A DNA stretch of 56,773 nt from positions 1 to 56,773 of the forward strand of contig DAOVDG010000002.1 of assembly GCA_030669595.1 (NCBI GenBank), read 5' to 3'. A program made the translations under genes and the position numbers. This stretch comes from Candidatus Thorarchaeota archaeon. Its GTDB lineage: Archaea > Asgardarchaeota > Thorarchaeia > Thorarchaeales > Thorarchaeaceae. Positions 21,267 through 54,334 of this stretch are shown piece by piece (within the stretch, counting starts at the first letter, position 1; every line of letters begins with the position of its first letter). The notes under the pieces were generated by a model that was not told the origin of the DNA, did no database searches, and saw nothing but the letters and a program-made list of their open reading frames with translations.

Positions 21267-21276
21267 GTGAAAAAAA

Positions 21277-40389: not shown

Positions 40390-40400
40390 GGCTGCTCCAA

Positions 40401-41874: not shown

Positions 41875-43041
41875 ATGCCCGAAGGATTAGCCGTACTGAA
41901 ATGGGATGATGAGCTGGGCCCTGTTGTGACCTCAAAGACACCAACGGGTCTGAAGGTTGGACTTGATCCAACCACATCAATGAGAGTCTATGGAATAGCT
42001 ACGTTGGGAGAAACTGAAGAGGCCCAAAAGCCTGGCTTCAGTTCTCTGTCGTTTGACAAGTTCAAACTGGCAGTCTACTATGGTGGACTCAACATGCACC
42101 TCAAGGGATTACCTTCGATGGTGTTCCTTGTTCTGGATCCAGATGAAGATCCGGATGTCTACAAGGATGCCTTGCCAGAGATAGCGACACAGATATTTCT
42201 CAACGCAGATGGCAAGAAGTACATCAAAATGGTGCCAAAGCTATACGAGCAGATAGCAAGATACACAATGATGACTCCTGAGCAACGTCAGGCGTCCATC
42301 CTGAGCGACCCCATCCGGAGAGCGATTCTCCGGACCCTCATGAGGGATGGTACCTTACAATCCACAGATCTCGAACAGATTATCTTCGAAGAGGTTGGCA
42401 AGAAGATAGATGTCGACCTAATCCTGAGACCTCTTGTCAAGATGGGCATCGTCGCGACAGGCTGGATTGAAGGTCTTTCCTCCGAAGTAATCTACCTTAC
42501 GAGGGCTATCTTTATTTTGCGCAGGATATCTCAAGACACCATTCGAGCAGTGAAGTCAGGATCACTACCGCCAGAGGTCATCGATAGCTTCCTCGATTCC
42601 ACAAAGCGCTATCACAGGGACTACATTGCGAAGCTGAGGAGAAACCTAACCGATACGATTTGGACTGAGGCAGAGGAGTTGTCAAAGTACCTGCTCGATT
42701 TCGAGGCCTATGATCTTCTTCAGATTCTACGAGAAGGGCCAAAGCAAACTGAGCACTTGCCGAGTCTTCTCGAAACCACGAAAGCAAAGCTGAGAAAGAA
42801 GCTGAAAACGATGGAGAAAGCTGGCATTCTCGTGCGCGTCAATGACGAGGATGGCAAAGAGCATGTCCTGCTCAAGAGCAGTCCAGAAGTGGTCACTGTC
42901 TACCCAGAATGGCTAATTCAGCGGACGGTTGACCTCTACAATCAAGAAGAGATTCACAGCCGGCAAGCGGGGCACTATCTTGAGATTCTCAAAAAGTTCC
43001 ATCCAAGTGCTGTTTCTTCCACTATGATGGAGCTGGAATAA
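41875..43041 (+). CDS. Longin/roadblock-like N-terminal domain plus two winged-helix domains (first gene of the cluster)
   Basis: The N-terminal ~130 aa reads MPEGLAVLKWDDELGPVV...FSSLSFDKFKLAVYYGG...SMVFLVLDPDEDPDVYKDALPEIATQIFL. WH1 is DPIRRAILRTLMRDGTLQSTDLEQII...LRPLVKMGIV. WH2 is YDLLQILREGPKQTEHLPSLLETTKAKLRKKLKTMEKAGILVRVNDEDGKEHVLL. Confidence 0.6.
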   Translation: MPEGLAVLKWDDELGPVVTSKTPTGLKVGLDPTTSMRVYGIATLGETEEAQKPGFSSLSFDKFKLAVYYGGLNMHLKGLPSMVFLVLDPDEDPDVYKDALPEIATQIFLNADGKKYIKMVPKLYEQIARYTMMTPEQRQASILSDPIRRAILRTLMRDGTLQSTDLEQIIFEEVGKKIDVDLILRPLVKMGIVATGWIEGLSSEVIYLTRAIFILRRISQDTIRAVKSGSLPPEVIDSFLDSTKRYHRDYIAKLRRNLTDTIWTEAEELSKYLLDFEAYDLLQILREGPKQTEHLPSLLETTKAKLRKKLKTMEKAGILVRVNDEDGKEHVLLKSSPEVVTVYPEWLIQRTVDLYNQEEIHSRQAGHYLEILKKFHPSAVSSTMMELE

Positions 43042-43042
43042 A

Positions 43043-43117
43043 GTGCGCAGGACCGGCCATATTCTGATTCTGGCGGCATTTGTGGTATTCCTAATGCTTC
43101 CTATGGGTGTTGGCGAC
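43043..43117 (+). other. Signal-peptide-like N-terminus of the giant protein
   Basis: MRRTGHILILAAFVVFLMLPMGVGD has a basic n-region, a hydrophobic core and small residues before D. Confidence 0.6.
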
Positions 43118-46100
43118 CAAGCTACTCCTCTCCGCAGCGATGCGGATGGCCTCCCCATGCTGGTTGATGGTGGATACCAAGTCGCGGGAGGCCAGGATTC
43201 AGCGGACTGGTGGAACTCCACTTACGTTTACCGCCGCTACTATAACTTCACGGAGCCCGGTGTGACTTCTAGAACCCTGACTCCAGTACATCTGTACCTC
43301 TCCTTCTCTGATGGCCATTGTTACAGGGATTCGATACGTGTGGGCTACTACGACACCCCTGGATGGTCAATACTCCCGTTTCAGCTATGGAACACGACCT
43401 ACGATTCGACTGGCAACTACATTGAATCGACGCGTGTCAGCTTTATGGTTAATGTGAGCCAAGGGCAGACAGAGTCCAACTACTACATCTACTATGCCAA
43501 GATTGACGTTGGCTCAGTCAGCTATCCTGACTTTTATCCCTTCATCTACAAGAGCTTCACATTCTCGCTGGTCAACCTTGTTTCATACTATGACAGCAAC
43601 AAGTACCTGGTTGAGATGTATGATACTGCAGGCGAGCAGTGGGATGACCCCGGGAATGTTGACTCAAGGTGGTCCTCGAGCCAAGTGACTCCAAACAACA
43701 TCCCCAACGGCACGCTTGACAGGTTCGAAAACATGAGATACGAGCCGACCAGCTACAGCTACACCAAGTTTCGTGGGTACTACGCAGTCTACTCCAACTA
43801 TCCGCTGGCAGTGACCATGGGTCAGGGCAACATGGGCTCAAACCCTGCAATCAACGACTGGTATCCCGGCGTCAACCAACTCAGCTCTGGAGTGGGCACC
43901 GAGTTCATTATTGGCGGGGTCGAGGGGTTCGAGAGTCGCAATGAGGGCAAGTACTGGGTCTTGGCAGTCGAGGACAACACAGAGGTGTATGCTTGGACCT
44001 CGGGTGAAACCGCCGACACGGGCTGGAAGTTCTCTGGCAATAACTCGGACATCACAGCGTGGCCGGCTGTGTTGAGGGCAGGCGAGTACGTATCTAAGAG
44101 AGACATGGTCTACACAACCTATGTGAAAGTGAACTCGACTAAGCCCATGGTGATCCGACAGGGGGACTCTGACTGCTCTTACGCAAGGGACATCTGGGCG
44201 TTCTATCCGGACATGACCGGTGCTCTCGCCGGGGAGGAGTTCTACACGATTGACATGGGCAATGGGAACGACCGTACCCGAGTCACGAACTTGGGCGACA
44301 CTAGCGTCCAGGTAGACTGGTGGAGAGACTCTGGTTCGGGTTGGGGAACTAAGAGCACGTTGACAATAGCGGCTAACAGTTCCCAGTTGATCAGCCAAGG
44401 CACTGCCAGTTCGACGAACCAGGAAGATGTTCTCCACATCAAGGGACCTGGCGGCTCGATGCTGATGGTCGAGGGAGTGTATAACCCTGGTTCGGCAACC
44501 GACGCTGGGGACTGGGTTCCGACGATCACTGGACACCGCTTCGGCACCAATCTGAAACTGTGGGGTAGAAACGGCTACAAATTCATGGTCGTGGCCACTG
44601 AGAACGCACTTGTCGACATCAGCGGCTACAATGATGGTCAGCTTGAAATCCCTGCAGGTGGAATGGCCGCATTTCGGCCATTGTCATCCAGCACAACTCT
44701 GTACCACATCACATCGAATGCGTCGGTTGGCGTTGTCGACCTTGGGCGGTTCTCAACTTCCACTCCCTACAATCCAACCGGGGACACAGGCTATGGCTGG
44801 CAGGTCCCGGCGTACGTGCCTGAACAGGACCAGAAGGGCTTCTCGATTGACCTCGGTGAGGAGCGACACCTGTTCGAGTTCGACATCACTGTAGTAGATC
44901 TTGATGACGTAGCGGTTTCCAGTGCCACTGTCACTCTTCACAACGCAAGCACAGGCGATGTCTGGGAGGACGAGCAGCACAAGAACCGCACGGGAACCAC
45001 GGACAGCAATGGTCTTATCATCTTCGAGGGCCTCAGCAATGGGACCTACGAGGTTCGAACCCGGATCGATGCAGCTCCGTGGCTGGCCATGTCGGCTTCG
45101 ATCACCCACGTGTGGATAACGGACGTGTCGAATCATCCCATCACAGGTTCTGTCACCCCCGTCACCATTACGCTGAACATGGCGTCCCTTGACATACATC
45201 TGGACGATCTGATGGACTCGTCGATGGATGACACTCTTGATGAGGACATCTACATGAGAGCCTGCAACGATACTGGCGATGACTCCATCTATATACACCA
45301 GGCGCAAGCGAACTCAACAGGTTGGCTGCACTTCCCAAGGATCCCACAGGATGACTACTACTTCAGGGCAAGATACACAGGCGAACACACGTGGAACTCG
45401 TATGGATTCGATGACCTACTGAGGTTCGCCAACTGGTCTGTTTCTGCCAGCGAGTTCGCGTCTGGGTCTTTCACGAAGCCCGCCTGGAAGCTACCTCTGA
45501 TTACAGTCCAAATCCATGTTCATAGCTGGGATGATATGGTCGTTCCTGACGCATTCATCAAGATGAACAACAGCCTTGAGCCTCTCACATATGTCATGAC
45601 GGAGAGCACAGATTCCAACGGGAACTACACATTCAACAGGATAGTGAACGGCACATGGAATCTTGATGTCTGGCGGAATGACGACTTTGGGCTGAAGGTA
45701 GTAAACAACACAGGCGCCGCGAGGCTGACAGACTTGCAGGGCTACACCTCCTTCGAGGTGCAGCTGCGACTCACGAAGCTCAATATCAGAGTGCAGAGGT
45801 CCGGAGGTGACCGTGTGCCCTATGCCACAGTGACAGTCTATCTGAACAACCAGACACCTGTGGCCTACGGGCAGACGGACCCAAGTGGGGAGGTCGTGTT
45901 CGAGTGGATTCGTGGCAACATGACGGACCCCTGGTTCTACTGGTACACGATAGATGTTGTCAAGGGTGATGCAAACAGAACGAGGGTGAATGTTACTGCC
46001 GACTCGGACTATACAGTATGGAACATAATCGTACTCCCTGATCCCACCTACTCAAAGACCTACACTGAGATAACTTCGGACTACAGTTTCGAACAGCGGT

Positions 46101-49100
46101 ACTGGTACGTGGATCTCGTATTCTGGATAGACTACTACAACCTCACTGGTTCAGAACCCGGTGTTGGCACCAACATAACGTACGATGCCACAACCCTGCT
46201 CGAGTTCGAGATATATCGTGGAGTCACTCTGGTCGGACGAGGAAATTGGACCACAGGCAGTAAGTCCTTCATGGAGAACATGCCGTGGCCAGGTGGTCGA
46301 AGGTTCACCATTACAATAGATCTTGACTACTGGAAGCTCAACGCAAGTGACACGGCCTACAGGATTGCCATCACAGCCTACACCAACGGCTATGATGACC
46401 CAGACCCTCTGGTTGTGTATTTGACAGTGCTCCAAGCTGAAACCTCCTGTGGGTCAGACGTTTCAGTGATCTCCGAGCCCTATCAGATGCACCATGAACA
46501 CCTGTTCTGGCTCACGGATCTGACGAACGACGGCAATCTGTCCGTTCTTGACACCTACAACTACACAGTGAAGTCAGGACTCACCACTGTTCTCGCCGGC
46601 TATCTATACAACAATGGGAATGGCACATTCAGTCTGCTCCCGAGCATGCTTTCCGGTCTGGTAGTTGGGGAATACGTCTTGGTCATCGAGCTGGATGAAC
46701 TCAACTGTGTCGGCGCAACGATTGAGGTACAGCTGGAGGTCACTGAAGCACCCATGGTTGTAGTTCTCTCCAATCCGGGCAACTACGAATGGTCCTTGAG
46801 TGCTGACAGTATGTCGTTCCAGTATCTGTGGGACAATTCCACAAGCCCTGACCTCTTGAGTGTTGACGTGACCATCCAATGGATCAACAACGACACAGGC
46901 CAAGTATATATCACAGTCCATCTTACACTCGACCCCATCGGTTCCAACTACATCTATGGTTTCAACCGGGATGTTGTGCCAAGCGGCAACTGGGATGTGA
47001 ATGTGACATGCTCCAAGGCCAACTATGCCTCCGCATGGGACTACTACGCCTATGTCTTGGTCACAGAGGCAGAAACGGGCTTGTGTGTCATCACGATTGA
47101 CCCCGTCACTGTGGAATGGGGCAGTGACGCCACATTCGAGGTCGTCTATAATCGGACAAGTGACGGATCAGGTCTTCCTGATGCCGCGTCCTCTCACAAC
47201 TGGTCTAGAGGAGTCACCGTTGACGATCTTGGCTCTGGACATTACTCGATCACTGTGGACACACTGGTTGAGTCAGGAAGCTATGCACTTCTGCTTGACA
47301 TGTCACTTGCGAATCACCAGACAGCAGTCATCAACCTGAACATCACGATACGGATTCCTCTTCGGATAGAGTCAGACTATGACTCCATTGAAACTCCACT
47401 GGAAGCCTACTGGACTCACAACTTCAGTCTCAGTGTGGTTCTCATAGATCAGTCAACCAACCAGCCAATCGCCGGAGCAACGGTCACCTACTCATGGTAT
47501 CTAGAGTTCGTAGTCGATTTGGAGGGTAACCTTGATCCCTACAGTGGCGGCATATACAATACGACACTGAACGGATGGGATGCAGTCCCACTGGAAGACC
47601 TGTATTCCATCGTGATCACAGCCAACATGGCGGGCTGCACTGAAACATCCGCGATCATCTTCTTGCGTATCAACGAGGTCCCGAACGAGATTGTGCTGGA
47701 AACCGAGTACTTCGAGGCGTTCTACGCAGATGTGTTCGATGTCAGGTTCTACTGGAACAACACTCTGGACAATGCACCAATCGAATATGCAGACGCGGAG
47801 GAATACTACCTGATCACCCTCGGCAGAAGCATAGCGACTGGTGTCAATGAGGGTGGAGGTTGGTATCACTTCGCCGTGAACACAAGAGATCTGGAGATGA
47901 GTGCCAAGGTGCAGGGATCGGTCTATGTGATTAGAATCACTATGACGAAGAGCGGACTTCAGGCCCATGAGCTCACAACGGTGATTGTGTTGGTGCGCGA
48001 GACCGACGCGTCCCTTGTGATTGACGCGATTGGCAACGTGAACTGGTCTGATCCGTTCCAAATCACGGCCCGTCTTTACGATGCTCATCCCGATCACGGG
48101 CACATGTTGATCTGGGATGGCGCAGTGGTGACAGTGAGCTATGGATCATTATCGATACAGATGACGAACAACGGAGACGGTACGTTCTCAGCAACTAACC
48201 AGTCAGACGCGTGGTTCTCTGCATCATCAAGTCCCTACAATCTGACCTTCACCTATACCCTGCCAAACTACGTGGACAATGTAAACATGTCCGCAATTGT
48301 CATCGTTCCGATACCCGGTCTCATCCTGAAAGACGCCCCAACGGGGACTCCTCTTGAGTACACATGGGGGACATCGTTCGAGCTCAAGGTTCATGTGTAT
48401 AACATCTATGAGGGAGCGTCCGACTCGTTGGCGGACGCCGCTGTCTTCTATCTCTGGAGCAGCTTCGACAGTCTATACCCGTTGGTCTACAGGTCCGGTG
48501 TGTTCTACTACAACGTGTCAGTTCTTACAACGCAGGTGTCTGCAGGGTCCTATTACCTCATAGTTAGAGTGGTCAACGAGAACCTCACAATTCCGGATTT
48601 GGAGGTGCCTATTACTGTCGCGCCTGTTGGCACGACTTTTGGGAGCGATACTGATAGGATCGATGTGATTCAAGGTGTGGACGAAACCACAATAATCACC
48701 TTGACCTACCTTGATGAACAGAGCAACCGGCTCGATGACGCTACAGTCTACTACGAGTGGGCGGGTCTCATGAGATATGGGTCCTACAGCGCGGGTGTGT
48801 TTGTGTGCGAGTTCAATCCCAGCGGGTCAAGTCTGACGGTGCCTGGAATCTACACTCTGACATTCCATGCTGAACTTCAGAATTACACATCTAGGATCTT
48901 CAATGTGACACTTGTCCTCAATGCAGCCACTGAGATGCGTGCTGACGATGCCATTTTAGAGTCAGACCAGACATTGACGTTGTACTTCATATTCTGGGAT
49001 CTTACGAACGATGCTGAGGTGCCAACTGACATTGTCACATCTGTGGGTGTGATTCTGCCTGGCGGTACGCAAGTCACTCCAGCGGTTGAACACGACACTA

Positions 49101-50110
49101 ACGGATACTATGTGATCTTGACTGCTGGTCAAATTGGCGAGATACAGACTGAGGGGTATGATATCATTTTGGTGGGGATTGCGCCTGGATACCAGAATCA
49201 CACACAGAGCGTCAATCCGCAGTTCGTTGAGGTCACCATAATCGAGCCGCAGGTGTTCATCCCCCTAATATCGAGTCTTATAGGTCCCATCCCACGATCA
49301 ATGCTCATCCTCACAGGATTTCTGGTTGCCATATTCGGGGCGCTTGTGGGAAGTACAGTCGCGATTCGTCGTTGGCGCATCCCCTATCAAATCAAGCAAA
49401 TCAACAAGGCCCTGAAGGCAGTGGAGTCTGGTAAGCGGGCAAAGGTTGAGAATATCAAGACTATGGGTGGGGTGATATCCGATGTGCTAGCACCAGGATT
49501 GGCAGCACTGGATATCACTGCTCCAATTATTGATGAGGTCACTGAGGATCGCATCGAAGAAATCCTGGGTGAGGATACCGAGGAACTTCTCGACGAACTC
49601 GATGCCCTTGATGAGATTGGGGCTGATGAAGTCGAGGCACCAGAGGAAGCACCTGATTTTGAAGCGGAACTTGCCGCTGAGATAGAAACAGTCGTTGAGG
49701 AAACACCTGAGCCAGAAGAGCTAATCGAAGCACCTGCAGAAGTGGAGGAACCGGAAGCTGAACTCGAGGAGGTTCTTGAGGAGCCAGAGCCTGAGCCAGA
49801 AGAGCTTGAGGCAGAGGTTGTAGAATCAGAGGTCGAGGAACCCGAGCTCACCACTGAGGAGGTTCCCGAGGACGTTGAGGAGAAACTCCCTGAATCTGAG
49901 CTTGAGCCAGAAACCCCCGTAGAAGAGGAAGCTGAGCCTGAGCCAGAATCGACTGAACCTGAGTCAAGAACGCAGTTGACAAAGAGGGAGCTAATCGAAC
50001 AGCTACCTTCCGAAATCAAGGAATCAATGTCTGAAGACGAGCTGAGGAAGCTCTCAAAGAAGGAACTCCACGCACTTTTCGACTCCATGAATAATACTGA
50101 GGATGCATGA
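43043..50110 (+). CDS. Giant (2355 aa) type-I membrane / surface protein: signal peptide, sequon-rich beta-rich ectodomain, one TM segment, acidic cytoplasmic tail
   Basis: The GTG start lies 1 nt after the upstream stop. Single uninterrupted 7.07-kb ORF. Carboxypeptidase-regulatory/prealbumin-like segments include VTLHNASTGDVWEDEQHKNRTGTTDSNGLIIFEGLSNGTYEVRTR, TESTDSNGNYTFNRIVNGTWNLDVWR and VTVYLNNQTPVAYGQTDPSGEVVFEWI. By manual count there are about 48 N-x-S/T sequons before the TM segment. Confidence 0.9.
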   Translation: MRRTGHILILAAFVVFLMLPMGVGDQATPLRSDADGLPMLVDGGYQVAGGQDSADWWNSTYVYRRYYNFTEPGVTSRTLTPVHLYLSFSDGHCYRDSIRVGYYDTPGWSILPFQLWNTTYDSTGNYIESTRVSFMVNVSQGQTESNYYIYYAKIDVGSVSYPDFYPFIYKSFTFSLVNLVSYYDSNKYLVEMYDTAGEQWDDPGNVDSRWSSSQVTPNNIPNGTLDRFENMRYEPTSYSYTKFRGYYAVYSNYPLAVTMGQGNMGSNPAINDWYPGVNQLSSGVGTEFIIGGVEGFESRNEGKYWVLAVEDNTEVYAWTSGETADTGWKFSGNNSDITAWPAVLRAGEYVSKRDMVYTTYVKVNSTKPMVIRQGDSDCSYARDIWAFYPDMTGALAGEEFYTIDMGNGNDRTRVTNLGDTSVQVDWWRDSGSGWGTKSTLTIAANSSQLISQGTASSTNQEDVLHIKGPGGSMLMVEGVYNPGSATDAGDWVPTITGHRFGTNLKLWGRNGYKFMVVATENALVDISGYNDGQLEIPAGGMAAFRPLSSSTTLYHITSNASVGVVDLGRFSTSTPYNPTGDTGYGWQVPAYVPEQDQKGFSIDLGEERHLFEFDITVVDLDDVAVSSATVTLHNASTGDVWEDEQHKNRTGTTDSNGLIIFEGLSNGTYEVRTRIDAAPWLAMSASITHVWITDVSNHPITGSVTPVTITLNMASLDIHLDDLMDSSMDDTLDEDIYMRACNDTGDDSIYIHQAQANSTGWLHFPRIPQDDYYFRARYTGEHTWNSYGFDDLLRFANWSVSASEFASGSFTKPAWKLPLITVQIHVHSWDDMVVPDAFIKMNNSLEPLTYVMTESTDSNGNYTFNRIVNGTWNLDVWRNDDFGLKVVNNTGAARLTDLQGYTSFEVQLRLTKLNIRVQRSGGDRVPYATVTVYLNNQTPVAYGQTDPSGEVVFEWIRGNMTDPWFYWYTIDVVKGDANRTRVNVTADSDYTVWNIIVLPDPTYSKTYTEITSDYSFEQRYWYVDLVFWIDYYNLTGSEPGVGTNITYDATTLLEFEIYRGVTLVGRGNWTTGSKSFMENMPWPGGRRFTITIDLDYWKLNASDTAYRIAITAYTNGYDDPDPLVVYLTVLQAETSCGSDVSVISEPYQMHHEHLFWLTDLTNDGNLSVLDTYNYTVKSGLTTVLAGYLYNNGNGTFSLLPSMLSGLVVGEYVLVIELDELNCVGATIEVQLEVTEAPMVVVLSNPGNYEWSLSADSMSFQYLWDNSTSPDLLSVDVTIQWINNDTGQVYITVHLTLDPIGSNYIYGFNRDVVPSGNWDVNVTCSKANYASAWDYYAYVLVTEAETGLCVITIDPVTVEWGSDATFEVVYNRTSDGSGLPDAASSHNWSRGVTVDDLGSGHYSITVDTLVESGSYALLLDMSLANHQTAVINLNITIRIPLRIESDYDSIETPLEAYWTHNFSLSVVLIDQSTNQPIAGATVTYSWYLEFVVDLEGNLDPYSGGIYNTTLNGWDAVPLEDLYSIVITANMAGCTETSAIIFLRINEVPNEIVLETEYFEAFYADVFDVRFYWNNTLDNAPIEYADAEEYYLITLGRSIATGVNEGGGWYHFAVNTRDLEMSAKVQGSVYVIRITMTKSGLQAHELTTVIVLVRETDASLVIDAIGNVNWSDPFQITARLYDAHPDHGHMLIWDGAVVTVSYGSLSIQMTNNGDGTFSATNQSDAWFSASSSPYNLTFTYTLPNYVDNVNMSAIVIVPIPGLILKDAPTGTPLEYTWGTSFELKVHVYNIYEGASDSLADAAVFYLWSSFDSLYPLVYRSGVFYYNVSVLTTQVSAGSYYLIVRVVNENLTIPDLEVPITVAPVGTTFGSDTDRIDVIQGVDETTIITLTYLDEQSNRLDDATVYYEWAGLMRYGSYSAGVFVCEFNPSGSSLTVPGIYTLTFHAELQNYTSRIFNVTLVLNAATEMRADDAILESDQTLTLYFIFWDLTNDAEVPTDIVTSVGVILPGGTQVTPAVEHDTNGYYVILTAGQIGEIQTEGYDIILVGIAPGYQNHTQSVNPQFVEVTIIEPQVFIPLISSLIGPIPRSMLILTGFLVAIFGALVGSTVAIRRWRIPYQIKQINKALKAVESGKRAKVENIKTMGGVISDVLAPGLAALDITAPIIDEVTEDRIEEILGEDTEELLDELDALDEIGADEVEAPEEAPDFEAELAAEIETVVEETPEPEELIEAPAEVEEPEAELEEVLEEPEPEPEELEAEVVESEVEEPELTTEEVPEDVEEKLPESELEPETPVEEEAEPEPESTEPESRTQLTKRELIEQLPSEIKESMSEDELRKLSKKELHALFDSMNNTEDA
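49301..49366 (+). other. Single predicted transmembrane helix of the giant protein
   Basis: MLILTGFLVAIFGALVGSTVAI is followed by the positive stop-transfer sequence RRWRIPYQIKQINK. Confidence 0.7.
49532..49966 (+). repeat. Low-complexity acidic E/P/A/L-rich cytoplasmic tail segment
   Basis: DEVTEDRIEEILGEDTEELLDELDALDEIGADEVEAPEEAPDFEAELAAEIETVVEETPEPEELIEAPAEVEEPEAELEEVLEEPEPEPEELEAEVVESEVEEPELTTEEVPEDVEEKLPESELEPETPVEEEAEPEPESTEPES. The Ser-rich minus-strand ORF 49387..50088 is its antisense shadow. Confidence 0.85.
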
Positions 50111-50267
50111 ATGTGATGCGCTCATTTCGGGTTTCAAAGACAGACGCACAATCCTCAAATGAGGAATTTTGTATCTTCGTCTATGAGGCCACCATAGGAC
50201 TGGGTCTAAGGTTCTTTGGTGCGCACTCCACCCCAGATCTGCATGGCAGACGGACTGTGATGTACAC

Positions 50268-51149
50268 ATGATACGAGAGATTCACGTCTTCAAGGACGGG
50301 CAAACCCTCTTTGAGGACGTCATTGTCCCGAATAGGGACCTTGACACGAACGCAGTCATGATGTTGGTTTCCTCCTCAACGAAGAAGTTGCAGGAGTGGA
50401 AGATTGACAGCATGGAGATTGAGCGTTTTCGATATGTGTACATGAACAGCCATGACACGCAATTCATCATCACGATGGATCGGCAAGCCTCCCTGATGAA
50501 GGTCAATGAGGCCATGATGAACATGGTTTCCAAGTTCATGACTGTCTTCGAGAGCGTTCTTGAAACTGACGAGTGGAAATCCACAGATTTCTCTCCATTC
50601 GGGGTTGCCTTCAGACATCTTGTGGGACGCATTCCGGTGAAGCTCTGCCTAGCGGGGCATGGCGGAACTGGCAAGACTACGTTGCTGGAACTTGCGACGC
50701 TTCCCTCACAAGGTCCGCCACAGGAGTACGTGCCAACCTTCTTTGGCGACAAGGCGATGTTGAAAGCTGATTTCGATCCTTACGTGTTCAGCATCTTCGA
50801 CCTAGGTGGTCAGGACCGATTTGTGCAGGAGTGGGGGAAGATAATTCGTGCAGGCAGCATGGTTGTCATAGTATCGGACTCAACTAAGGACAATATAGCC
50901 TGGACGAAACGAGTGGCCTACCCTGTCTTGAAAACCGAGCTGCCATATGCTCGATGCATTGCAGTCGCCAATAAGCAGGACCTCAAAGGTGCGATGTCGC
51001 CACAGGAGGTGGGCCGGAAACTTGGCGTACCCGCGTATGGCATGCAAGCCAATCAGCGGGATTTCAGGCAAAGATGGCTTGGTCTCCTCAAGGAGCTTGC
51101 CTTTGAAACATGTGATTTTAAAATCGCAGCAGAGATTGAGGTGGATTAG
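50268..51149 (+). CDS. Arf-family-like small GTPase with an N-terminal ~120-aa longin/roadblock-like domain
   Basis: G1 is GHGGTGKT (50655..50678). Switch-I candidate is YVPTFFG. G3 is DLGGQ (50799..50813). G4 is NKQD (50970..50981), within AVANKQDLKGAMSPQEVGRKLG. The N-terminal domain reads MIREIHVFKDGQTLFEDVIV...ERFRYVYMNSHDTQFIITMDRQASLMKVNEAMMNMVSKFMTVFESVLETDEW. Confidence 0.8.
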   Translation: MIREIHVFKDGQTLFEDVIVPNRDLDTNAVMMLVSSSTKKLQEWKIDSMEIERFRYVYMNSHDTQFIITMDRQASLMKVNEAMMNMVSKFMTVFESVLETDEWKSTDFSPFGVAFRHLVGRIPVKLCLAGHGGTGKTTLLELATLPSQGPPQEYVPTFFGDKAMLKADFDPYVFSIFDLGGQDRFVQEWGKIIRAGSMVVIVSDSTKDNIAWTKRVAYPVLKTELPYARCIAVANKQDLKGAMSPQEVGRKLGVPAYGMQANQRDFRQRWLGLLKELAFETCDFKIAAEIEVD

Positions 51150-51722
51150 ATGTCTCCTGAAAATGAATCAAAGAGTATAATCAATGAAGCGGAACGAAAA
51201 CGCCTCGTAGAGGAGATTGGTCGGATAAAGGACGTGCTTGATTCGTTCAAGTATGGCCTGAATTTTGAAGATTTCGCCGACGAGCTCTTCAAGACTGTAA
51301 ACAGGCAGACGATTACTATCAAGAATCTCGATGCGAAGATGTCAGATATCGTTTCTCGTATGGAGCGCCTTGAAGAACGTCTGAACGAAGGCATCAAGGT
51401 CCGAGTTTCAGGACTGAGCGGAGAACTGACAGGAGACCTTGCTGAGGGTAAGGAGGTCATAATCGAAGGGCCTCTTGTCGAGGAGCCCCCTGAGGAGGAC
51501 CTTGCCGCCAAGGCATCACGAGAGGAGCTTGAAACGGAAGCGGCCAATATTGAAACCAAGATTGCCAAGCTCTTCGAGAAAGAGAACGAGCTTCTTGAAA
51601 TGGCGTTGAACGACCCCGCCGGGGCCGATGAGTACGATGGACGGGCCAAGGTGGCAATAGAGATGAGAGGAGAACTTGAAGCATCTCTCAAGAAGATAAA
51701 GGAACAGCTTAAGCAATACTAG
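51150..51722 (+). CDS. Acidic coiled-coil protein (190 aa)
   Basis: The ATG immediately follows the GTPase stop (TAG at 51147..51149). GAGGTGG at 51138..51144 lies 5 nt upstream. Heptad-like helices at both ends (AERKRLVEEIGRIKDVLDSF; REELETEAANIETKIAKLFEKENELLEMAL; ELEASLKKIKEQLKQY). Confidence 0.7.
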   Translation: MSPENESKSIINEAERKRLVEEIGRIKDVLDSFKYGLNFEDFADELFKTVNRQTITIKNLDAKMSDIVSRMERLEERLNEGIKVRVSGLSGELTGDLAEGKEVIIEGPLVEEPPEEDLAAKASREELETEAANIETKIAKLFEKENELLEMALNDPAGADEYDGRAKVAIEMRGELEASLKKIKEQLKQY

Positions 51723-51725
51723 AAT

Positions 51726-51732
51726 GAGGTGG
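51726..51732 (+). promoter_or_regulatory. Shine-Dalgarno-like GAGGTGG
   Basis: It lies 8 nt upstream of the ATG at 51741. Comparable elements sit at 51138..51144 (GAGGTGG), 52099..52105 (GAGGTGA) and 53459..53463 (GGAGG), before the other downstream cluster genes. Confidence 0.5.
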
Positions 51733-51740
51733 AAGTGAAT

Positions 51741-52100
51741 ATGGGATTATTCGACAGCTGGAGAAGAAGAAGACGAAAGAAAGAAGTTGTGGCACCGAAA
51801 GAACGCAAGAGTTCAGAAGCTGAGGCACCCACGCCTACTCGTCCGGAAGGACTAACTCCTGTCGAAAAGGGCGAGGTTGCTGATCTTGTGGCTCAGTATG
51901 AGAAGCTCCACAAGAGGCGCGCTGAGCTTCATACGGAACGAGCGCAGTTGACGGATCAGCTTGATACTGGTGAACTGACAGCTCTTAAGTTCCGCAAACA
52001 GCTTATGTTGAAAATACAAGAAGCTGCGCAGGTTTCTGACAACTTGAAGGAAACGGTCTCTAGGCTTATTGCACTCGGCTATCGTGGTGTGCTTCACTGA
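51741..52100 (+). CDS. Small protein with a basic N-terminus and a helical hairpin (possible Snf7/ESCRT-III-like N-terminal core)
   Basis: ORF 51729..52100. The ATG at 51741 is favoured by RBS spacing. MGLFDSWRRRRRKKE is followed by a Pro/Ala/Glu linker. Then come two long helices: VADLVAQYEKLHKRRAELHTERAQLTDQLDTGELTALKFRKQLMLKIQEAAQVSDNLKETVSRLIALG. Confidence 0.6.
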   Translation: MGLFDSWRRRRRKKEVVAPKERKSSEAEAPTPTRPEGLTPVEKGEVADLVAQYEKLHKRRAELHTERAQLTDQLDTGELTALKFRKQLMLKIQEAAQVSDNLKETVSRLIALGYRGVLH

Positions 52101-52111
52101 GGTGATTATTC

Positions 52112-53446
52112 TTGCCGGGTCGGGAAGAAAGGGGCCGAAACGACTCTGGTCCTTCAGACACAGAAGAGGAAACTCAGCGACTCATGGAGGACGCCATGAG
52201 CGGCGATATCTCTGAGAAGTCCCCAAAGGAAATTCTGGTCACCACAGCTGCAGAATCTATCGACGAAACATTCCACCGCATTCAGGTTCGCATAGAGGAC
52301 ATTCTTTCTTCCATCGAAGATAGCGTGAGATTAGTTGAACCCGAACTTAACGAGAAGCTCGAAGTCACTTTGGAGCGGCTGAATACACGGCTCAAAGGTG
52401 CTGGTCTGGGAGTTTTTGTAACGACTGCCATGAAGATGACCGATGAAGAACTAAGGAAAGGCATGTCAGCGGAGGGTCTTCTCTCACCGATTCTTAACGC
52501 TATTAGTGAAAGTCGTAGCGAAGTTGAAGACATCGTGATGAAGGCCGGCAGGGGTGCTGTACGTAACGTTGGTGAGTCCACAGGGAGTCTTCAAACCAAG
52601 ATTGTGCAGATGTATGCTACGCTGAATGAGCATGAGAAACAGCTTGATGCCACCCGCGCAGAATTGAAACGATGGAGAGAACGGGCAAACGAACTTCAGG
52701 ACCTTGTCAAGTCGAGAGACGAAACGATGGAACGGTCCGTTGAAGTTCTTGAACAAATGCGAACGGCTCGTGCCGAACTAGAGCGCTTGAATGAGGAGCA
52801 TGAACAGACTATCTCTACCGTGAAGGGCGAACTCAGTCAGGCGCAGTCGCAGATAGAACAACAAAAAGAGCTTTTAGATAAACATGGTTCATTTGAGGAA
52901 ATCGCGCAGGACTATGAAACGAAGCTAGTTGAGCTATCTGAGGTACAAGGGCAGCTTGCTGAGGCTCAGGAGCGACTGGCGCAAAGAGAAGACACTGTCG
53001 AATCATTGAAAGCTGAGGTTCAGATGCTAAAAGAGAGCAACTCGAATCTAGAATCACAGATGAGCTCGATGACAGAGGAGGCAGCTGCTCTTAGAGGTGT
53101 GAAGAAATCTGACCAAACTGAGCTGGAGTCATTAAAGGCACAACTAGATGAGCTGAAAGCACGATGGGAGAATCTCTATCAGGTCGCAGAGGATGAACCG
53201 GCTTTCAGAGCATATTTCATGATAGCGGACAAGAAATTCACTTGGCTTCCACTCTCGCACCTTTCACAGGCCCTAGGTGTTCCAACCGTTCTACTGAAGA
53301 GGAATTTGCAGAAGTTCGTTGATGCAGGCCTTGTAGAGATCGAGGGTGACCGTGTTCGTCCCTTGAGCATGTCTGAATTAGCAGCAAAGCCAGAGGATGC
53401 AGACAAGTCAGACGCAACAGGCAGTCAGGACAACACTAGCGAGTAG
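52112..53446 (+). CDS. Long coiled-coil protein with a C-terminal winged-helix domain (444 aa)
   Basis: The TTG start lies 6 nt after GAGGTGA. An extended heptad region covers roughly residues 170-350 (QLDATRAELKRWRERANELQDLVKSRDE...LESLKAQLDELKARWENLYQ). The C-terminal part reads FTWLPLSHLSQALGVPTVLLKRNLQKFVDAGLVEIEGDRVRP. Confidence 0.7.
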   Translation: MPGREERGRNDSGPSDTEEETQRLMEDAMSGDISEKSPKEILVTTAAESIDETFHRIQVRIEDILSSIEDSVRLVEPELNEKLEVTLERLNTRLKGAGLGVFVTTAMKMTDEELRKGMSAEGLLSPILNAISESRSEVEDIVMKAGRGAVRNVGESTGSLQTKIVQMYATLNEHEKQLDATRAELKRWRERANELQDLVKSRDETMERSVEVLEQMRTARAELERLNEEHEQTISTVKGELSQAQSQIEQQKELLDKHGSFEEIAQDYETKLVELSEVQGQLAEAQERLAQREDTVESLKAEVQMLKESNSNLESQMSSMTEEAAALRGVKKSDQTELESLKAQLDELKARWENLYQVAEDEPAFRAYFMIADKKFTWLPLSHLSQALGVPTVLLKRNLQKFVDAGLVEIEGDRVRPLSMSELAAKPEDADKSDATGSQDNTSE

Positions 53447-53472
53447 CATTTCTAGATTGGAGGATTTTGCAG

Positions 53473-53814
53473 ATGCCCAAACCACTCGGCGAGGTAATGA
53501 GATTCCTAGAGAACTACACACTAGCATGGCATCACTGGCTAATTGTGCTGTCACTCTTGAAGCTAAAAGGTAGTGGAACAAAAGGTCAAATCTTTCCAGT
53601 CTTCAAGAAGGAGGGTTTCTCTCTTCATGCTATTGAGGGGATATTCAAGCGAGACCTCGAAGAACTAGGTGAGGTAATCGAGGTTGAGGAGGGCATCGAC
53701 AATCTCCAAGACAGCAGTACTATATACCTTACCGAAGACCCGAAGTTCAGATCTTATCTGAAGAAGCATTTGAAACCTGTTATCCGGACCCTTAAGACGC
53801 GCAAGATAGACTAA
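53473..53814 (+). CDS. Small winged-helix-like protein (last gene of the cluster)
   Basis: ORF 53467..53814. The ATG at 53473 lies 9 nt after GGAGG (53459..53463). WHHWLIVLSLLKLKGSGTKGQIFPVFKKEGFSLHAIEGIFKRDLEELGEVIEVEEG. Confidence 0.5.
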   Translation: MPKPLGEVMRFLENYTLAWHHWLIVLSLLKLKGSGTKGQIFPVFKKEGFSLHAIEGIFKRDLEELGEVIEVEEGIDNLQDSSTIYLTEDPKFRSYLKKHLKPVIRTLKTRKID

Positions 53815-53875: not shown

Positions 53876-54205
53876 ATGTCTGAAATGGGAATCAACGCCT
53901 CGAAGTGCATGGGGTGTGACAGAGCCCTTGTTCCACCGAGAACAACCTGCCCCTATTGCGGAAAGTCGGCTGGAACCATGATTCCAGTTCAACTCAAGAA
54001 CGAAGGCACTATACTCAGCTACACAATCTCTCAGATGCCGCCGGAGGGGTTCAAATCGCCTCTTGTGCTTGCTCTTGTTCAGTTAGAGCAGAGTGCTGTT
54101 GTGCTATGCCTTGGTGACCTCTCTGACCCCGTTCCTCTTGAGATTGGCATGGAGGTTTCTGTTAAGGAGGACGGAGAGGGTAGATTTCTGCTTGACCATC
54201 TTTGA
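53876..54205 (+). CDS. DUF35 Zn-ribbon/OB-fold protein (usual partner of archaeal thiolase-fold proteins)
   Basis: CMGCDRALVPPRTTCPYCG zinc ribbon, followed by an OB-like segment GTILSYTISQMPPEGFKSPLVLALVQLEQSAVVLCLGD. Confidence 0.75.
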   Translation: MSEMGINASKCMGCDRALVPPRTTCPYCGKSAGTMIPVQLKNEGTILSYTISQMPPEGFKSPLVLALVQLEQSAVVLCLGDLSDPVPLEIGMEVSVKEDGEGRFLLDHL

Positions 54206-54334
54206 TGTAATCTGCATAGCTGTCAAGCACATTGCTGGTACTCGATTCGCTGCGTAATGAGTAGCATCGGTATGCTCTTCCCAACTGAATCCAGCTAGGG
54301 ATTTAAGGAGCTGATTCTCTGAAGCGTCTAGGTT

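Follow-up and report, generated by a model that had tools for sequence, protein, structure and literature searches.

A conserved Asgard gene cluster connects a giant single-pass surface protein with longin-type and Arf-like GTPase genes

What could join a giant surface protein, an Arf-like GTPase and a set of small cytoplasmic proteins in one run of seven genes in a thorarchaeal genome? The genes lie at 41875-53814 of the window, i.e., the whole stretch of 56,773 nucleotides that was analysed (Table 1). The ORF listing and the junction read-out confirmed seven same-strand, closely packed ORFs, and the gaps given in the original prediction (1, 157, 0, 18, 11 and 26 nt) matched exactly with its chosen starts. 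The Shine-Dalgarno-like motifs claimed for four downstream genes were present as well: GAGGTGG is located 5 nt upstream of g4 and 8 nt upstream of the ATG of g5, GAGGTGA precedes the g6 start by 7 nt, and the g7 start is preceded by GGAGG. Searches of Pfam, NCBIfam and PADLOC found no enzyme family besides the GTPase among the cluster proteins, as had been proposed. The literature search found no paper describing the cluster or a characterised system with its gene set, in agreement with the earlier statement that none was known.

Table 1. Features of the cluster and its flanks in the window, and the fused relatives of g1 and g2.
Feature	Position	Strand	Description
Thiolase flank	40386..41567	+	Pfam Thiolase_N/C; outside the system, marks the conserved insertion site
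g1	41875..43041	+	388 aa, ATG; N-terminal longin-like domain and two winged-helix-like domains; proposed adaptor/regulator
g2	43043..50110	+	2355 aa, GTG; single-pass surface protein
g2 TM helix (aa 2083-2108) and cytoplasmic juxtamembrane motif (aa 2109-2165)	49289..49537	+	RRWRIPYQIKQINKALKAVESGKRAKVENIKTMGGVISDVLAPGLAALDI; proposed docking site
g2 acidic low-complexity cytoplasmic tail	49538..50107	+	C-terminal motif LTKRELIEQLPSEIKESMSEDELRKLSKKELHAL
g2-g3 spacer	50111..50267	+	Hairpin TCCTCAAATGAGGA (50152-50165), then ATTTTGTATC
g3	50268-51149	+	293 aa; longin and Arf-like GTPase
g3 N-terminal longin-type domain (aa 1-120)	50268..50627	+	AF2 model
g3 Arf-like small GTPase domain (aa ~121-293)	50628..51149	+	G1 GHGGTGKT, T157, G3 DLGGQ, G4 NKQD
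g4	51150..51722	+	190 aa, acidic (pI 4.6), predicted coiled coil; accessory
g5	51741..52100 (ATG, 119 aa) or from 51729 (GTG, 123 aa)	+	Basic, pI 9.8
g6	52112..53446	+	444 aa, TTG; acidic coiled-coil protein with C-terminal winged-helix-like domain
g7	53473..53814 (ATG, 113 aa) or from 53467 (TTG, 115 aa)	+	Basic, pI 8.8, conserved
DUF35/ChsH2-type OB-fold and zinc-ribbon flank	53876..54205	+	Pfam OB_ChsH2_C, zf-ChsH2; outside the system
Acyl-CoA dehydrogenase flank	54335-55516		After the DUF35 gene; outside the system
Fusion representatives			P0258, P0275, P0282, P0286, P0292, P0308, P0310, P0268, P0260; whole g1 module after ectodomain, TM helix and juxtamembrane motif

The domain assignments of the original prediction mostly stood, and that of g3 was fully borne out, with all G motifs of the GTPase present and invariant across 30 orthologs. 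The protein matched Pfam Arf (E 2e-12, 47 bits, cut-off 22.3), and the closest solved relatives of its GTPase domain were the Asgard ArfR structures 8oun/8oum and Arf1. The longin domain was modelled by AF2 with a pLDDT of about 90 and a predicted topology of bb-a-bbb-a-a, with no N-terminal helix. It is conserved through the loci of Atabeyarchaeum (L041) and LC30 (L042), with 36% identity over the full length, and a g3 paralog in the LC30 locus gave a weak Fuz_longin_1 match. That longin-GTPase fusions are common in Asgard archaea has been reported before: 26 of the 74 small GTPases of MK-D1 are combined with roadblock or longin domains, and such genes are generally not found in operons with longin/roadblock genes, their partners being unassignable (PMC10933270). 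Although g3 falls into the same architecture class as these GTPases ('Rag-like, annotated Arf'; ArfL/ArfR/RagGtr; MK-D1 and others), unlike them it has conserved neighbours, among which are the genes of another longin protein and of a surface protein.

This other longin protein is g1, in which both the longin fold and the two winged helices were recovered, the winged helices being weak (about aa 141-217 and 276-342). Its longin-like domain (aa 1-130) carries an invariant W10-D11-x3-G15-P16. At least 192 homologs share 67-98% identity, all named ones being Asgard, and the exhaustive search yielded 241 cluster representatives of the family. The AF2 model of g1 is of only moderate confidence (pLDDT 65) and suggests an N-terminal topology of bb-a-bbb-aa. 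No Foldseek match with this model reached E 1e-3; the best structural neighbours of the N-terminus were NPRL2 chains, FLCN/FNIP and an Asgard roadblock, namely MK-D1 Roadblock3, and about 139 N-terminal columns matched the GATOR1 NPRL2-size chains 9o5d_D and 9v0j_A (prob 1.0, E 9e-3).

Among the closest known systems are the eukaryotic longin GAP complexes, i.e., GATOR1 NPRL2-NPRL3 with RagA/B, FLCN-FNIP with RagC/D and C9orf72-SMCR8 with Arf. As in these, the gene of a longin-fold protein is located beside that of an Arf/Rag-like GTPase, on which it would presumably act at a membrane. The W-D-x3-G(-P) of g1 is placed in the beta1-beta2 loop with the same spacing as W33-D34...G38-P39 of C9orf72 and lies where GAP longins have their characteristic GP motif (PMC12290439, section 2.4). 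The 'GP' form is confined to Thorarchaeota-like members, 6 of the 77 representatives. Unlike the GAP longins, g1 has no arginine at the loop where NPRL2 and FLCN have the arginine finger and shows no significant sequence or profile similarity: sequence profiles connected its longin family with none of the Pfam or PDB longins, and the hhalign comparisons with NPRL2 and C9orf72 were not significant (prob 0.2% and 1.5%). The suggested likeness to the GATOR1/C9orf72 GAP longins is one of motif and predicted fold only. Moreover, g1 has winged helices instead of DENN/CTD modules, the longin of g3 is N-terminal rather than a C-terminal roadblock as in the Rag GTPases, and the cluster is tied to a giant surface protein instead of the lysosome.

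That surface protein, g2, had been described as a 2355-aa protein with a signal peptide, a sequon-rich ectodomain, one TM helix and an acidic tail, and the analysis agreed. It has a hydrophobic, signal-like N-terminus (aa 3-26), a single TM helix, prealbumin/CarboxypepD_reg-like repeats at aa ~616-954 and 48 N-x-S/T sequons in the ectodomain versus 21.3 +/- 4.0 in shuffles. These features indicate a secreted or anchored, heavily sequon-bearing protein, as judged from its sequence. The cytoplasmic tail comprises 250 aa (pI 4.05) with 84 D/E versus 20 K/R, and its C-terminal motif is shared by the window and the loci L004, L007, L012 and L015. The orthologs of g2 in Thorarchaeota are 32-54% identical. 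The TM/juxtamembrane segment, of which the cytoplasmic portion measures ~55 aa, is the most conserved part (mean identity of 0.66 versus 0.28-0.57 elsewhere in g2). The juxtamembrane motif is also recognisable in Atabeyarchaeum, LC30, the relocated giants of type-B loci and the Loki-type fusions.

The remaining four genes encode smaller proteins. The coiled coils called in g4 and g6 were confirmed: g4 gave weak coiled-coil-type matches only, and g6 (coiled coil at about aa 130-360, winged-helix-like domain at about aa 375-430) gave generic SMC/Rad50-arm-type matches and a weak HTH_Crp_2 match, its Atabeyarchaeum ortholog matching HVO_A0114 and HTH_69 weakly. The presence of filament-type partners, also suggested earlier, found no evidence in support. 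The N-terminus of g5 is basic, as had been noted, and conserved as MGLFDxWRRKKK, with M1, G2, D5, W7 and R9 (near-)invariant; it is followed by a variable linker and a helical hairpin of ~70 aa. The search for solved relatives of g5, ESCRT-III/PspA among them, gave none. We propose that g5 may serve as a membrane-binding tether. Meanwhile, the winged-helix-like assignment of g7 found no support, as the protein had no match in Pfam, NCBIfam or PDB and its profile showed no similarity to the winged helices of g1 and g6. The protein is 45-78% identical in all Thorarchaeota loci and 29% identical in L039.

The gene-neighbourhood comparison recovered the cluster in synteny in 38 genomes of Thorarchaeota, each standing for one species. 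As the order recurs in all of these species representatives, the arrangement is not due to chance. The thiolase gene is directly upstream of g1 and the DUF35 gene downstream of g7 in every Thorarchaeota locus reaching that far. The order thiolase-g1-g2-g3-g4-g5-g6-g7-DUF35 is found in 13 complete and 11 partial species-level loci, and the core g1-g3-g5-g7 in every locus long enough to show it. In the 12 type-B species of the 38, g4 and g6 are missing; g2 is absent from the locus in eight of these and located beyond the thiolase gene in four. Outside type A, g4 was seen in L039 (g3-g4-g5-g6-(g1-like?)-g7), and it is missing from the Atabeyarchaeum and LC30 loci. The seven genes are thus no obligate set; the conserved core is g1, g3 and g5 (plus g7), with g2, g4 and g6 dispensable.

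Beyond Thorarchaeota, the loci of Atabeyarchaeum and LC30 have the order giant-g1-g3-g5-g6 with overlapping stop/start codons and no thorarchaeal flanks, and their identity to the window is 32-34% for g1 and 36% for g3; g6 occurs there in a short form, being an accessory gene in Thorarchaeota. In every long-enough locus, these two and L039 included, g5 follows g3 directly or via g4. The giants adjoining g1 in L041, L042 and the Loki-type contigs L045-L047 are homologous to g2. In the latter three, the giant is directly followed by the g1 homolog (1-4 nt junction) with no GTPase gene adjacent. In at least nine cluster representatives, a giant TM protein carries the g1 module at its C-terminal end, attached through a linker of ~90 aa. 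Two such fusions are in tandem in L048, and in L044, a Loki-type contig, the gene after the fusion encodes a full-length homolog of g3 (E 3e-51). Across Asgard classes, the g1 gene hence either lies beside the gene of the giant protein or is joined to it, and g3 adjoins g1 in Thorarchaeota, Atabeyarchaeia and LC30 and, on a single Loki-type contig, the giant-g1 fusion. The connection of the cytoplasmic module with the giant, which was the core of the original prediction, is real in all these groups; the three-way link is not universal, since eight thorarchaeal species have no nearby giant and L045-L047 no adjacent GTPase gene. In this respect, the earlier interpretation holds for the link and not for seven genes as a fixed unit.

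The spacer between g2 and g3 varies from 5 to 343 nt across the loci and, in several orthologs, has a stem-loop and a T-run right after the g2 stop, so that g1-g2 and g3-g7 may be transcribed as two separate units. The TCCTCAAATGAGGA hairpin was scored as a terminator-like match, and a motif around CCTCAAAT is common to the spacers of six loci. The spacer could be a terminator/attenuator or an operator, possibly with an internal promoter region.

We consider the cluster to encode, with a probability of about one half, a conserved Asgard membrane-proximal small-GTPase module that assembles at the cytoplasmic face of a giant single-pass glycoprotein of the cell surface. Longin and roadblock domains are known to dimerise in Rag-Ragulator, GATOR1, FLCN-FNIP, C9orf72-SMCR8 and MglB. 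In the module, g1 would bind the juxtamembrane segment or tail of g2, and the longin domains of g1 and g3 would pair, placing the G domain of g3 under the control of g1 as a GAP or GEF. The hydrophobic-plus-polybasic N-terminus of g5 would keep the complex at the membrane, and the acidic coiled-coil proteins g4 and g6 may be optional scaffolds or effectors. We infer a GTPase switch on the tail of the surface protein, the GTP/GDP state of g3 coupling the state, position or turnover of this protein to the cytoplasm, either as outside-in signalling or as inside-out control. The synteny, the distant rearranged loci, the fusions, the tight junctions and the juxtamembrane conservation argue for this module, as do the predicted folds, the W-D-x3-G(-P) motif and the g5 N-terminus. 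On the other side, small GTPases are so abundant in Asgard genomes that some of the adjacency could be due to chance, and the stem-loops behind the g2 gene suggest that g1-g2 is transcribed apart from g3-g7. The protein contacts, the GTPase regulation, the membrane binding and the co-transcription are all putative.

In bacterial MglA-MglB polarity modules, a Ras-superfamily switch works with a roadblock/longin-superfamily partner (the GAP MglB), coiled-coil/scaffold proteins and envelope-spanning adhesion complexes. The proposed module resembles this prokaryotic MglA-MglB module (10.1101/2022.03.17.484758), known with RomR/RomX and the Agl-Glt focal-adhesion machinery. It differs in the classical catalytic Gln and Arf-type sequence of g3, in having no motor or Glt-like genes in the cluster and in its coupling to a single-pass glycoprotein, by direct fusion in some lineages.

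It is doubtful that the cluster serves transmembrane transcription control instead, with g1 (perhaps also g6 and g7) as DNA-binding winged-helix regulators and the giant as a sensor of the ToxR/CadC kind, by which the regulator is tethered or sequestered. Where the two are fused, the giant would act as the regulator in its own right. The GTPase would modulate this step, with gene expression as the output and not a membrane or cytoskeletal process. A likeness to ArsR/MarR is recognisable in the second winged helix of g1 (Pfam HTH_20, E 7e-6; MarR-family PDB matches; Foldseek prob ~1.0 of the C-terminus with MarR/ArsR repressors), aa 255-347 match the PADLOC Csa3 wHTH, the first winged helix weakly matches ArsR/SmtB (NCBIfam ArsR, aa 141-169), many copies in the databases bear an ArsR/HxlR regulator annotation, and g6 and its Atabeyarchaeum ortholog have a weak C-terminal wHTH. 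In spite of this, all wHTH scores are under the curated cut-offs (26.4 vs 27; 26.9 vs 55), and about aa 289-305 of g1, where the second winged helix has its helix 2 and its recognition helix begins, form the least conserved stretch of the consensus in an otherwise 67-98% identical family, an unusual feature in a regulator with a specific operator. The palindrome of the g2-g3 spacer, with a related motif in five other loci, would suit an operator, but it also reads as a terminator hairpin, and its 12-mer is not enriched in the window. Winged helices can also be protein-protein modules, as in eukaryotic longin complexes and ESCRT-II, and a place behind a membrane protein, joined to it by a linker, fits an adaptor equally well. 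The Loki-type fused proteins share an extracytoplasmic domain, one TM helix and cytoplasmic winged helices with ToxR/CadC-type one-component regulators; however, their topology is reversed, with the wHTH C-terminal after the longin domain, and the giant ectodomain, the associated GTPase and the sub-threshold wHTH scores set them apart.

In the eukaryotic SRP receptor, the longin-like SRX domain of SRalpha is bound to the Arf-like GTPase SRbeta at the membrane. A biogenesis or trafficking device, in which the longin adaptor and the Arf-like GTPase act like SRX-SRbeta or an Arf/coat system and direct the insertion, glycosylation-coupled export, polar placement or turnover of the giant rather than signalling, is likewise an unlikely explanation. 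It would draw on the same gene linkage and fusions as the GTPase module and on the resemblance of the longin-Arf-like pairing to SRX-SRbeta. The closest solved GTPases belong to the Arf/ArfR family, which shares a single clade with SRbeta (10.1101/2024.02.28.582541); the module kept in eight species without a neighbouring giant would be expected if the cargo were encoded elsewhere. The weak Pfam SRPRB match of g3 (E 0.025) is, however, insignificant, the cluster has no SRP54-type NG domain and the GTPase no TM anchor. The context is not a secretion locus, as neither the cluster nor its flanks contain genes for a translocon, SRP, an oligosaccharyltransferase or a coat, and a permanent adaptor-cargo fusion is hard to square with a catalytic targeting factor. 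It is very improbable that there is no functional unit at all, the genes being neighbours by shared ancestry in one archaeal order, with an S-layer/adhesin gene landed between unrelated regulatory genes. Synteny within Thorarchaeota proves little, because the thiolase, DUF35 and acyl-CoA dehydrogenase flanks are conserved there as well as the cluster, and g2, g4 and g6 can be lost. Nevertheless, the linkage outlasts rearrangement and 32-36% identity in other Asgard classes without these flanks, the junctions are 0-20 nt or overlapping, and the g1-giant fusions in many independent clusters largely refute such a reading.

The cluster thus gives one of the many unexplained 'eukaryote-like' GTPases of Asgard archaea a testable set of partners.

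The ORF listing of the window placed seven plus-strand genes at exactly the positions of the original prediction, and with its start codons the junction read-out gave the same gaps of 1, 157, 0, 18, 11 and 26 nt. The GAGGTG(G/A) or GGAGG elements that it had described were found 5-9 nt ahead of g4 (acidic coiled coil), g5 (basic N-terminus and helical hairpin), g6 (coiled coil and winged helix) and g7 (small basic protein). The neighbours of the cluster are genes of acyl-CoA and amino-acid metabolism.

Features in and around the g1-g7 cluster, by position in the window
Feature	Position	Placement or content	Source
Acyl-CoA and amino-acid fermentation genes	3836-4417, 4515-6176, 12636-18320, 20307-22947		
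Multi-PAS histidine kinase gene (HATPase_c)	24883-27495	870 aa; amid metabolic genes	
Thiolase gene	40386-41567	directly upstream of g1	Pfam
Cluster g1-g7 (+)	41875-53814		ORF listing
Palindromic hairpin TCCTCAAATGAGGA	50152-50165	g2-g3 spacer; followed by ATTTTGTATC	
DUF35/ChsH2-type OB-fold gene	53876-54205	directly downstream of g7	Pfam
Acyl-CoA dehydrogenase gene	54335-55516	downstream of DUF35 gene	
ORF of at least 386 aa (-)	55613-56773	runs into window edge	

The fermentation genes are plentiful and include two methylmalonyl-CoA-mutase-family large subunits, MeaB, a corrinoid adenosyltransferase, a 2,4-diaminopentanoate dehydrogenase-like gene, a class-III aminotransferase and two CoA-transferase subunits. 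The minus-strand ORF at the window edge has no obvious family from reading alone; at the matching position, the compared locus L001 carries a 594-aa minus-strand gene having no Pfam match.

As the junctions from g3 to g7 measure 0-20 nt and carry Shine-Dalgarno-like motifs, it is plausible that these genes form an operon. The longin and winged-helix gene g1 is coupled to the giant glycoprotein gene g2 by the 1-nt junction. The weak point of the single-operon idea is the spacer between g2 and g3, the gene of the longin-fused Arf-like GTPase. The length of this spacer ranges from 5 to 343 nt among the orthologous loci, and in several of them it opens with a G+C-rich stem-loop followed by a T-rich sequence. 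One transcript has the same likelihood as two transcription units or as attenuation downstream of g2, and the palindrome or hairpin may serve as terminator, operator or promoter element. The palindrome CCTCAAATGAGG was also considered as a repeated operator and rejected, as it is not enriched in the window (13 matches with at most two mismatches, a single one of them exact, where 6.8 +/- 2.9 would be expected). A 42-aa ORF called between g2 and g3 in L001 was likewise discarded for lack of conservation; the spacers cannot be aligned save for a loose motif (AGACAAACA..ATA.CCTCAAAT) common to the window and to L001, L004, L008, L015 and L036. In the closest relative (L002, g3 95% identical), the g2-g3 gap is only 13 nt and matches both ends of the window's 157-nt spacer; therefore, the hairpin-bearing 144 nt are either a recent insertion in the window or a deletion in L002.

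Species-representative genomes were scanned with the g3 alignment, which yielded 42 loci, and the ORFs of these loci were then searched by tblastn and iterative HMM searches. Thorarchaeal-type loci accounted for 38 of the 42, with a g3 identity of 73-95%, and the homologs that are 67-98% identical to g1 or g3 are nearly all labelled Candidatus Thorarchaeota, so that the window derives from a Thorarchaeota-like Asgard archaeon. The thiolase gene upstream of g1 and the DUF35 and acyl-CoA dehydrogenase genes downstream of g7 are present in every Thorarchaeal-type locus extending far enough. In archaea, thiolase and DUF35/ChsH2-type genes normally lie side by side and work together. The cluster splits the thiolase gene from the other two (53876-55516), and this split is kept in L001-L040, in long and short loci alike.

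The full order g1-g2-g3-g4-g5-g6-g7 was found in 13 distinct loci, and 11 truncated loci are consistent with it. Twelve loci have the short form g1-g3-g5-g7, while a single one (L013) reads g1-g3-g5-g6-g7. In a neighbour-joining tree built from g3, the short form is scattered over at least three separate clades; as the outgroups bear g2 and g6, or g4 and g6, it is more simply explained by repeated loss. In every locus reaching far enough, g5 comes after g3, either directly or past g4. Identity to the window is highest for g3 and g1, followed by g7, then by g4 and g5, and finally by g6 and g2. The conserved core is g1, g3, g5 and g7, and g2, g4 and g6 are accessory. The predicted seven-gene unit thus stands as the full Thorarchaeal arrangement but not as an obligatory set, given the 12 short loci. 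A strict co-loss of g2, g4 and g6, as suggested by tblastn, was weakened by four of these 12 (L024, L026, L028 and L029), in which a giant protein with a transmembrane (TM) helix and a juxtamembrane motif that can still be recognised is encoded immediately upstream of the thiolase gene. Only eight species truly lack a giant partner at the locus.

Outside the Thorarchaeota, the order giant-g1-g3-g5-g6 was found in the complete genome of Candidatus Atabeyarchaeum deiterrae (L041) and in the LC30 MAG (L042), with overlapping stop and start codons and with all the Thorarchaeal flanks absent. The giant protein there is sequon-rich, single-pass and 1604 or 1238 aa long; g1 is 32-34% and g3 36% identical to the window, and they are accompanied by a g5 homolog and a short g6 homolog with a coiled coil and a winged helix. 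A further locus (L039, g3 identity 56%) carries g3-g4-g5-g6, a 510-aa ORF with a weakly g1-like N-terminus, and g7. In L041 (12101-12652) and L042 (12001-12546), a minus-strand gene for a Rab/Ras-like GTPase of 181-183 aa stands tail-to-tail after the g6 homolog, and L042 encodes a second longin plus Arf/RagA-like GTPase of 338 aa at 12788-13804 on the plus strand, with a weak Fuz_longin_1 match (E 1.8e-3, below the cut-off).

An exhaustive profile search with the g1 alignment returned 241 cluster representatives at an E-value of at most 1e-3. At least nine of them bear the whole g1 module at the C-terminus of a protein of 590-2550 aa. In the four fusions inspected, a sequon-rich ectodomain and a TM helix are followed by the juxtamembrane motif YRxxKxAxIPxFVKKVRxxKKAI, a linker of about 90 aa and a longin domain beginning MKWDERIGTE, with the winged helices behind it. 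The fused cytoplasmic part gave 605 matches in a word-index search, covering both fused and free 367-aa forms and labelled Lokiarchaeia, Promethearchaeota, Hodarchaeota or Thorarchaeota. In the Loki-type locus L044 a full-length homolog of g3 (HMM positions 2-278, E 3e-51) comes after the fused gene, and L048 holds two consecutive giant-g1 fusions (1-1467 and 1616-9469). Three long Loki-type contigs encode a Laminin_G_3 protein of 1380-1852 aa with a free g1 homolog 0-4 nt on and no adjoining GTPase gene. The gene order across Asgard classes and the fusions agree with the predicted link between a giant surface protein and cytoplasmic longin and GTPase genes. The expected conservation of the neighbourhood held for g1, g3 and the giant gene in other Asgard classes, but not for the Loki-type contigs in which the giant-g1 pair lacks an adjacent GTPase. 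L044 also carries two minus-strand genes side by side: one (1414-3294) for a 626-694-aa protein with a g3-like longin and GTPase followed by a second GTPase domain, the other (457-1188) for a 243-aa coiled-coil protein with a weak g6 match. The pair possibly represents another copy of the module that has diverged.

The giant protein g2 has the predicted surface-protein architecture, namely a signal-like hydrophobic N-terminus, a sequon-rich ectodomain (48 sequons against 21 +/- 4 expected), a single TM helix at aa 2083-2108 and an acidic cytoplasmic tail (250 aa, pI 4.05). It also contains prealbumin-like repeats. Among 14 Thorarchaeal orthologs, the best-conserved part is the stretch of about 55 residues after the TM helix, with a mean identity of 0.66, compared with 0.28-0.57 for the ectodomain, the TM helix and the tail. 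Its motif, R-x-x-[RK]-I-P-[YF]-x-I-K-[QK]-I-[ND], is recognisable in the giants of Atabeyarchaeum and LC30 and in the relocated giants, and is looser in the fused proteins. Such a pairing of a fast-changing ectodomain with a fixed cytoplasmic stub would suit a surface protein whose intracellular partner is conserved. Individual loci vary further. The acidic tail of the L015 ortholog (ORF 2561-9772) has an insert, IPGIGPTIEDRLANAGYTTVSALSEADPLVLAEVEGISENKAEQIVDEAR, which looks like a helix-hairpin-helix and is absent from the g2 of the window; L008 has two tandem giants (ORFs 6-3281 and 3324-9881), each with the juxtamembrane motif. In the Thorarchaeal locus L038 (5053-8572), only fragments of g2 remain (91 and 693 aa, juxtamembrane motif retained) and g3 falls into two pieces of 57 and 235 aa; a copy in decay, a variant with a short ectodomain and an error of assembly are all conceivable.

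The GTPase g3 scored above the threshold of Pfam Arf (PF00025; 47.3 bits, cut-off 22.3, E 2.1e-12), as predicted for an Arf-like protein, and above that of TIGR00231 small_GTP (46.7, cut-off 42.5). Its motifs are complete: the P-loop G1 of the GxxxxGK[ST] type (GHGGTGKT, aa 130-137), G3 with the catalytic Gln (DLGGQ, aa 178-182) and G4 (NKQD, aa 235-238) are, like T157, invariant in 30 orthologs. A Trp stands at +7 from the catalytic Gln, as in Arf1. The best solved matches are the Asgard ArfR structures 8oun/8oum and Arf1. No Arf-type N-terminal amphipathic (myristoylated) helix was found on g3, which has a 120-aa longin-type domain there instead; a hydrophobic-plus-polybasic N-terminus is borne by a separate protein, g5. 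In the AF2 model of aa 1-120 (pLDDT of about 90), DSSP assigned E2-9, E12-18, H27-39, E46-51, E54-61, E64-71, H76-98 and H111-119. This beta-beta-alpha-beta-beta-beta-alpha-alpha order without an N-terminal helix is the longin topology. The Foldseek list for g3 was dominated by the GTPase domain, and neither a curated longin or roadblock profile in Pfam nor a PDB sequence matched its longin part. Unlike the Rag/Gtr GTPases, g3 has no C-terminal roadblock dimerisation domain; it carries its accessory domain at the N-terminus and in longin form, and its last G-domain helix is trailed by only about 15 residues. At the arginine-finger loop, whose equivalence was judged by sequence and topology, the g3 longin has no Arg.

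The predicted composition of g1, a longin-like domain and two winged helices, agrees with the topology of its AF2 model and with weak profile matches to both winged helices. The overall pLDDT is 65 (55-80 in the longin part), and in aa 1-130 DSSP assigned E4-11, E15-21, H32-44, E54-59, E64-69, E80-87, H99-109 and H115-130, a longin topology with two winged-helix-like units after it. No Foldseek match of the model fell below E 1e-3. Among the structures nearest to the N-terminus were NPRL2-size chains (9o5d_D, 9o5a_H and 9v0j_A; 139 columns, rmsd 4.3, prob 1.0, E 9e-3 to 4.5e-2), the MK-D1 roadblock Roadblock3 9jue (E 0.03) and FLCN-FNIP. The presence of NPRL2 in the GATOR1 PDB entries was confirmed by comparison with the reference sequence.

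A GP motif that closes the beta1-beta2 loop has been reported as specific to the GAP longins FLCN, NPRL2, SMCR8 and C9orf72 (PMC12290439). In g1, this loop reads W10-D11-x3-G15-P16, with G15-P16 invariant in 30 Thorarchaeal orthologs; the spacing is that of C9orf72 (W33-D34...G38-P39), and hhalign placed the two in register. In the wider g1 family, the W[DNE]xxxG pattern is present in 65 of 77 diverse representatives and only the Gly is kept, followed by Pro in 6 of the 77 and otherwise by Ala, Thr or Val. With loop equivalence judged by sequence and topology, the arginine finger of NPRL2 (R78), FLCN (R164) and SMCR8 (R147) was not found in g1, whose loop before beta5, YYGGLNMHLKGLPS, has an invariant H75 and a near-invariant K77 but no Arg. 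The g1 profile did not align significantly by hhalign with NPRL2 1-151 (prob 0.2%) or C9orf72 1-224 (prob 1.5%, E 0.033); the reference sequences used are 100% identical to 6ces_N and 6lt0_C. No curated longin or roadblock profile in Pfam or PDB sequence matched the g1 longin. Since the profile comparison is non-significant, the Pro is not general, and both the arginine and a Pfam or PDB profile match are missing, the case is weak, and we use the label GAP-longin-like as a lead and not as a classification. Most Thorarchaeal MAGs encode a family of an NPRL2-like longin with a C-terminal domain (Liu et al., 10.1101/2020.10.19.343400). Its identity with g1 was rejected, as g1 has no Pfam NPR2/NPR3 match and the hhalign comparison was non-significant.

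The remaining proteins gave few matches. The acidic g4 has weak coiled-coil matches; g6 has generic SMC/Rad50-arm matches over aa ~130-360 and a weak C-terminal winged helix. The basic g5 (pI 9.8) has no Pfam match, and its near-invariant N-terminus MGLFDxWRRKKK begins with MGLFD, a start resembling that of ESCRT-III/PspA/Vipp1 proteins. As a truncated member of that group g5 was rejected, because a profile of 20 orthologs against all PDB sequences found only designed or generic coiled coils at E of at least 1e-3, with no ESCRT-III, PspA or Vipp1 among them. No match was found for g7 in Pfam, NCBIfam or PDB searches, nor any profile likeness to the winged helices of g1 and g6, which leaves the winged helix of the original prediction putative. 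Homology within the cluster was also rejected, all hhalign comparisons (g7 with the g6 or g1 winged helices, g4 with g6 or g5, and the g3 with the g1 longin) giving probabilities below 7%.

In the main alternative to a GTPase-centred system, the winged helices would bind DNA and the cluster would act as a transmembrane switch of transcription. At the fold level, the second winged helix of g1 does resemble ArsR/MarR proteins, and MarR/ArsR repressors are the best Foldseek neighbours of the g1 C-terminus. However, every winged-helix score of this half lies under its curated cut-off (HTH_20 26.4 vs 27, HTH_5 17.3 vs 22, NF033788 26.9 vs 55), and within an otherwise highly conserved protein, conservation is lowest around the recognition helix. 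A second variant gives the module an SRX-SRbeta-like role in biogenesis or targeting. A defence island or mobile element was rejected on the grounds that PADLOC returned no defence-system model, with only SMC-arm-type matches for g6 and a weak Csa3 winged helix for g1, that the GC content is flat across the window (0.48-0.55) and that the flanks are conserved. The same scan, together with Pfam and NCBIfam, found no enzyme other than the GTPase g3, in line with the original prediction. Purely coincidental neighbourhood is largely ruled out by the giant-g1 fusions and by conservation of the genes after rearrangement.

We favour the GTPase-centred system. Going beyond folds, motifs, gene order and fusions, we infer from the fusion or adjacency of the two genes that the site of g1 action is the giant protein's cytoplasmic end. 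As g1 and g3 both start with longin domains, which characteristically pair, the two proteins would form a longin heterodimer, placing the G domain of g3 under the control of g1. By analogy only with LAMTOR1 in Ragulator, g5 is a candidate membrane tether, and g4 and g6 may be optional acidic coiled-coil partners. Such a switch would either report on the ectodomain or control the placement or turnover of the surface protein. In its widest form, the reading makes g1 an archaeal counterpart of the eukaryotic GAP-longin subunits of the C9orf72/NPRL2 type, held on the giant glycoprotein by binding or fusion and controlling a longin-fused Arf/Rag-like GTPase; the lysosome- or organelle-bound longin-GAP/Rag-Arf nutrient and trafficking switches of eukaryotes would then derive from a cell-surface receptor-adaptor-GTPase device. 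We consider this unlikely, with a probability of roughly 15%.

GTPases fused to longin or roadblock domains are a known, abundant Asgard class (PMC10933270), Asgard Arfs with longin N-termini have been noted (PMC11914678), and other longin/GTPase neighbourhoods were described by Liu et al. (10.1101/2020.10.19.343400). Asgard genomes encode dozens of small GTPases and more than 100 longin or roadblock proteins, rarely in operons (PMC10933270). Full-text searches, which exclude most subscription journals and so are no proof of novelty, turned up neither this gene set nor the g1 family, nor any linkage or fusion of that family to giant surface proteins. As judged from sequence, the new feature appears to be the conserved physical coupling of a longin-regulated small-GTPase module to a giant single-pass surface glycoprotein.

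Through this cluster, one Asgard GTPase gains a conserved set of partners: another longin protein, whose loop motif resembles that of C9orf72/NPRL2, a small candidate membrane tether, coiled-coil proteins, and a giant surface glycoprotein whose partnership is backed by the fusions and by the order of the genes in several Asgard classes. It offers concrete pairs for binding, GAP/GEF and membrane-recruitment assays. If g1 is truly a GAP-longin counterpart, this would be the first matched set of GTPase, regulator and membrane partner in Asgard archaea. If the link between surface protein and GTPase holds, the coupling of transmembrane proteins to a small-GTPase switch would be older than eukaryotes.
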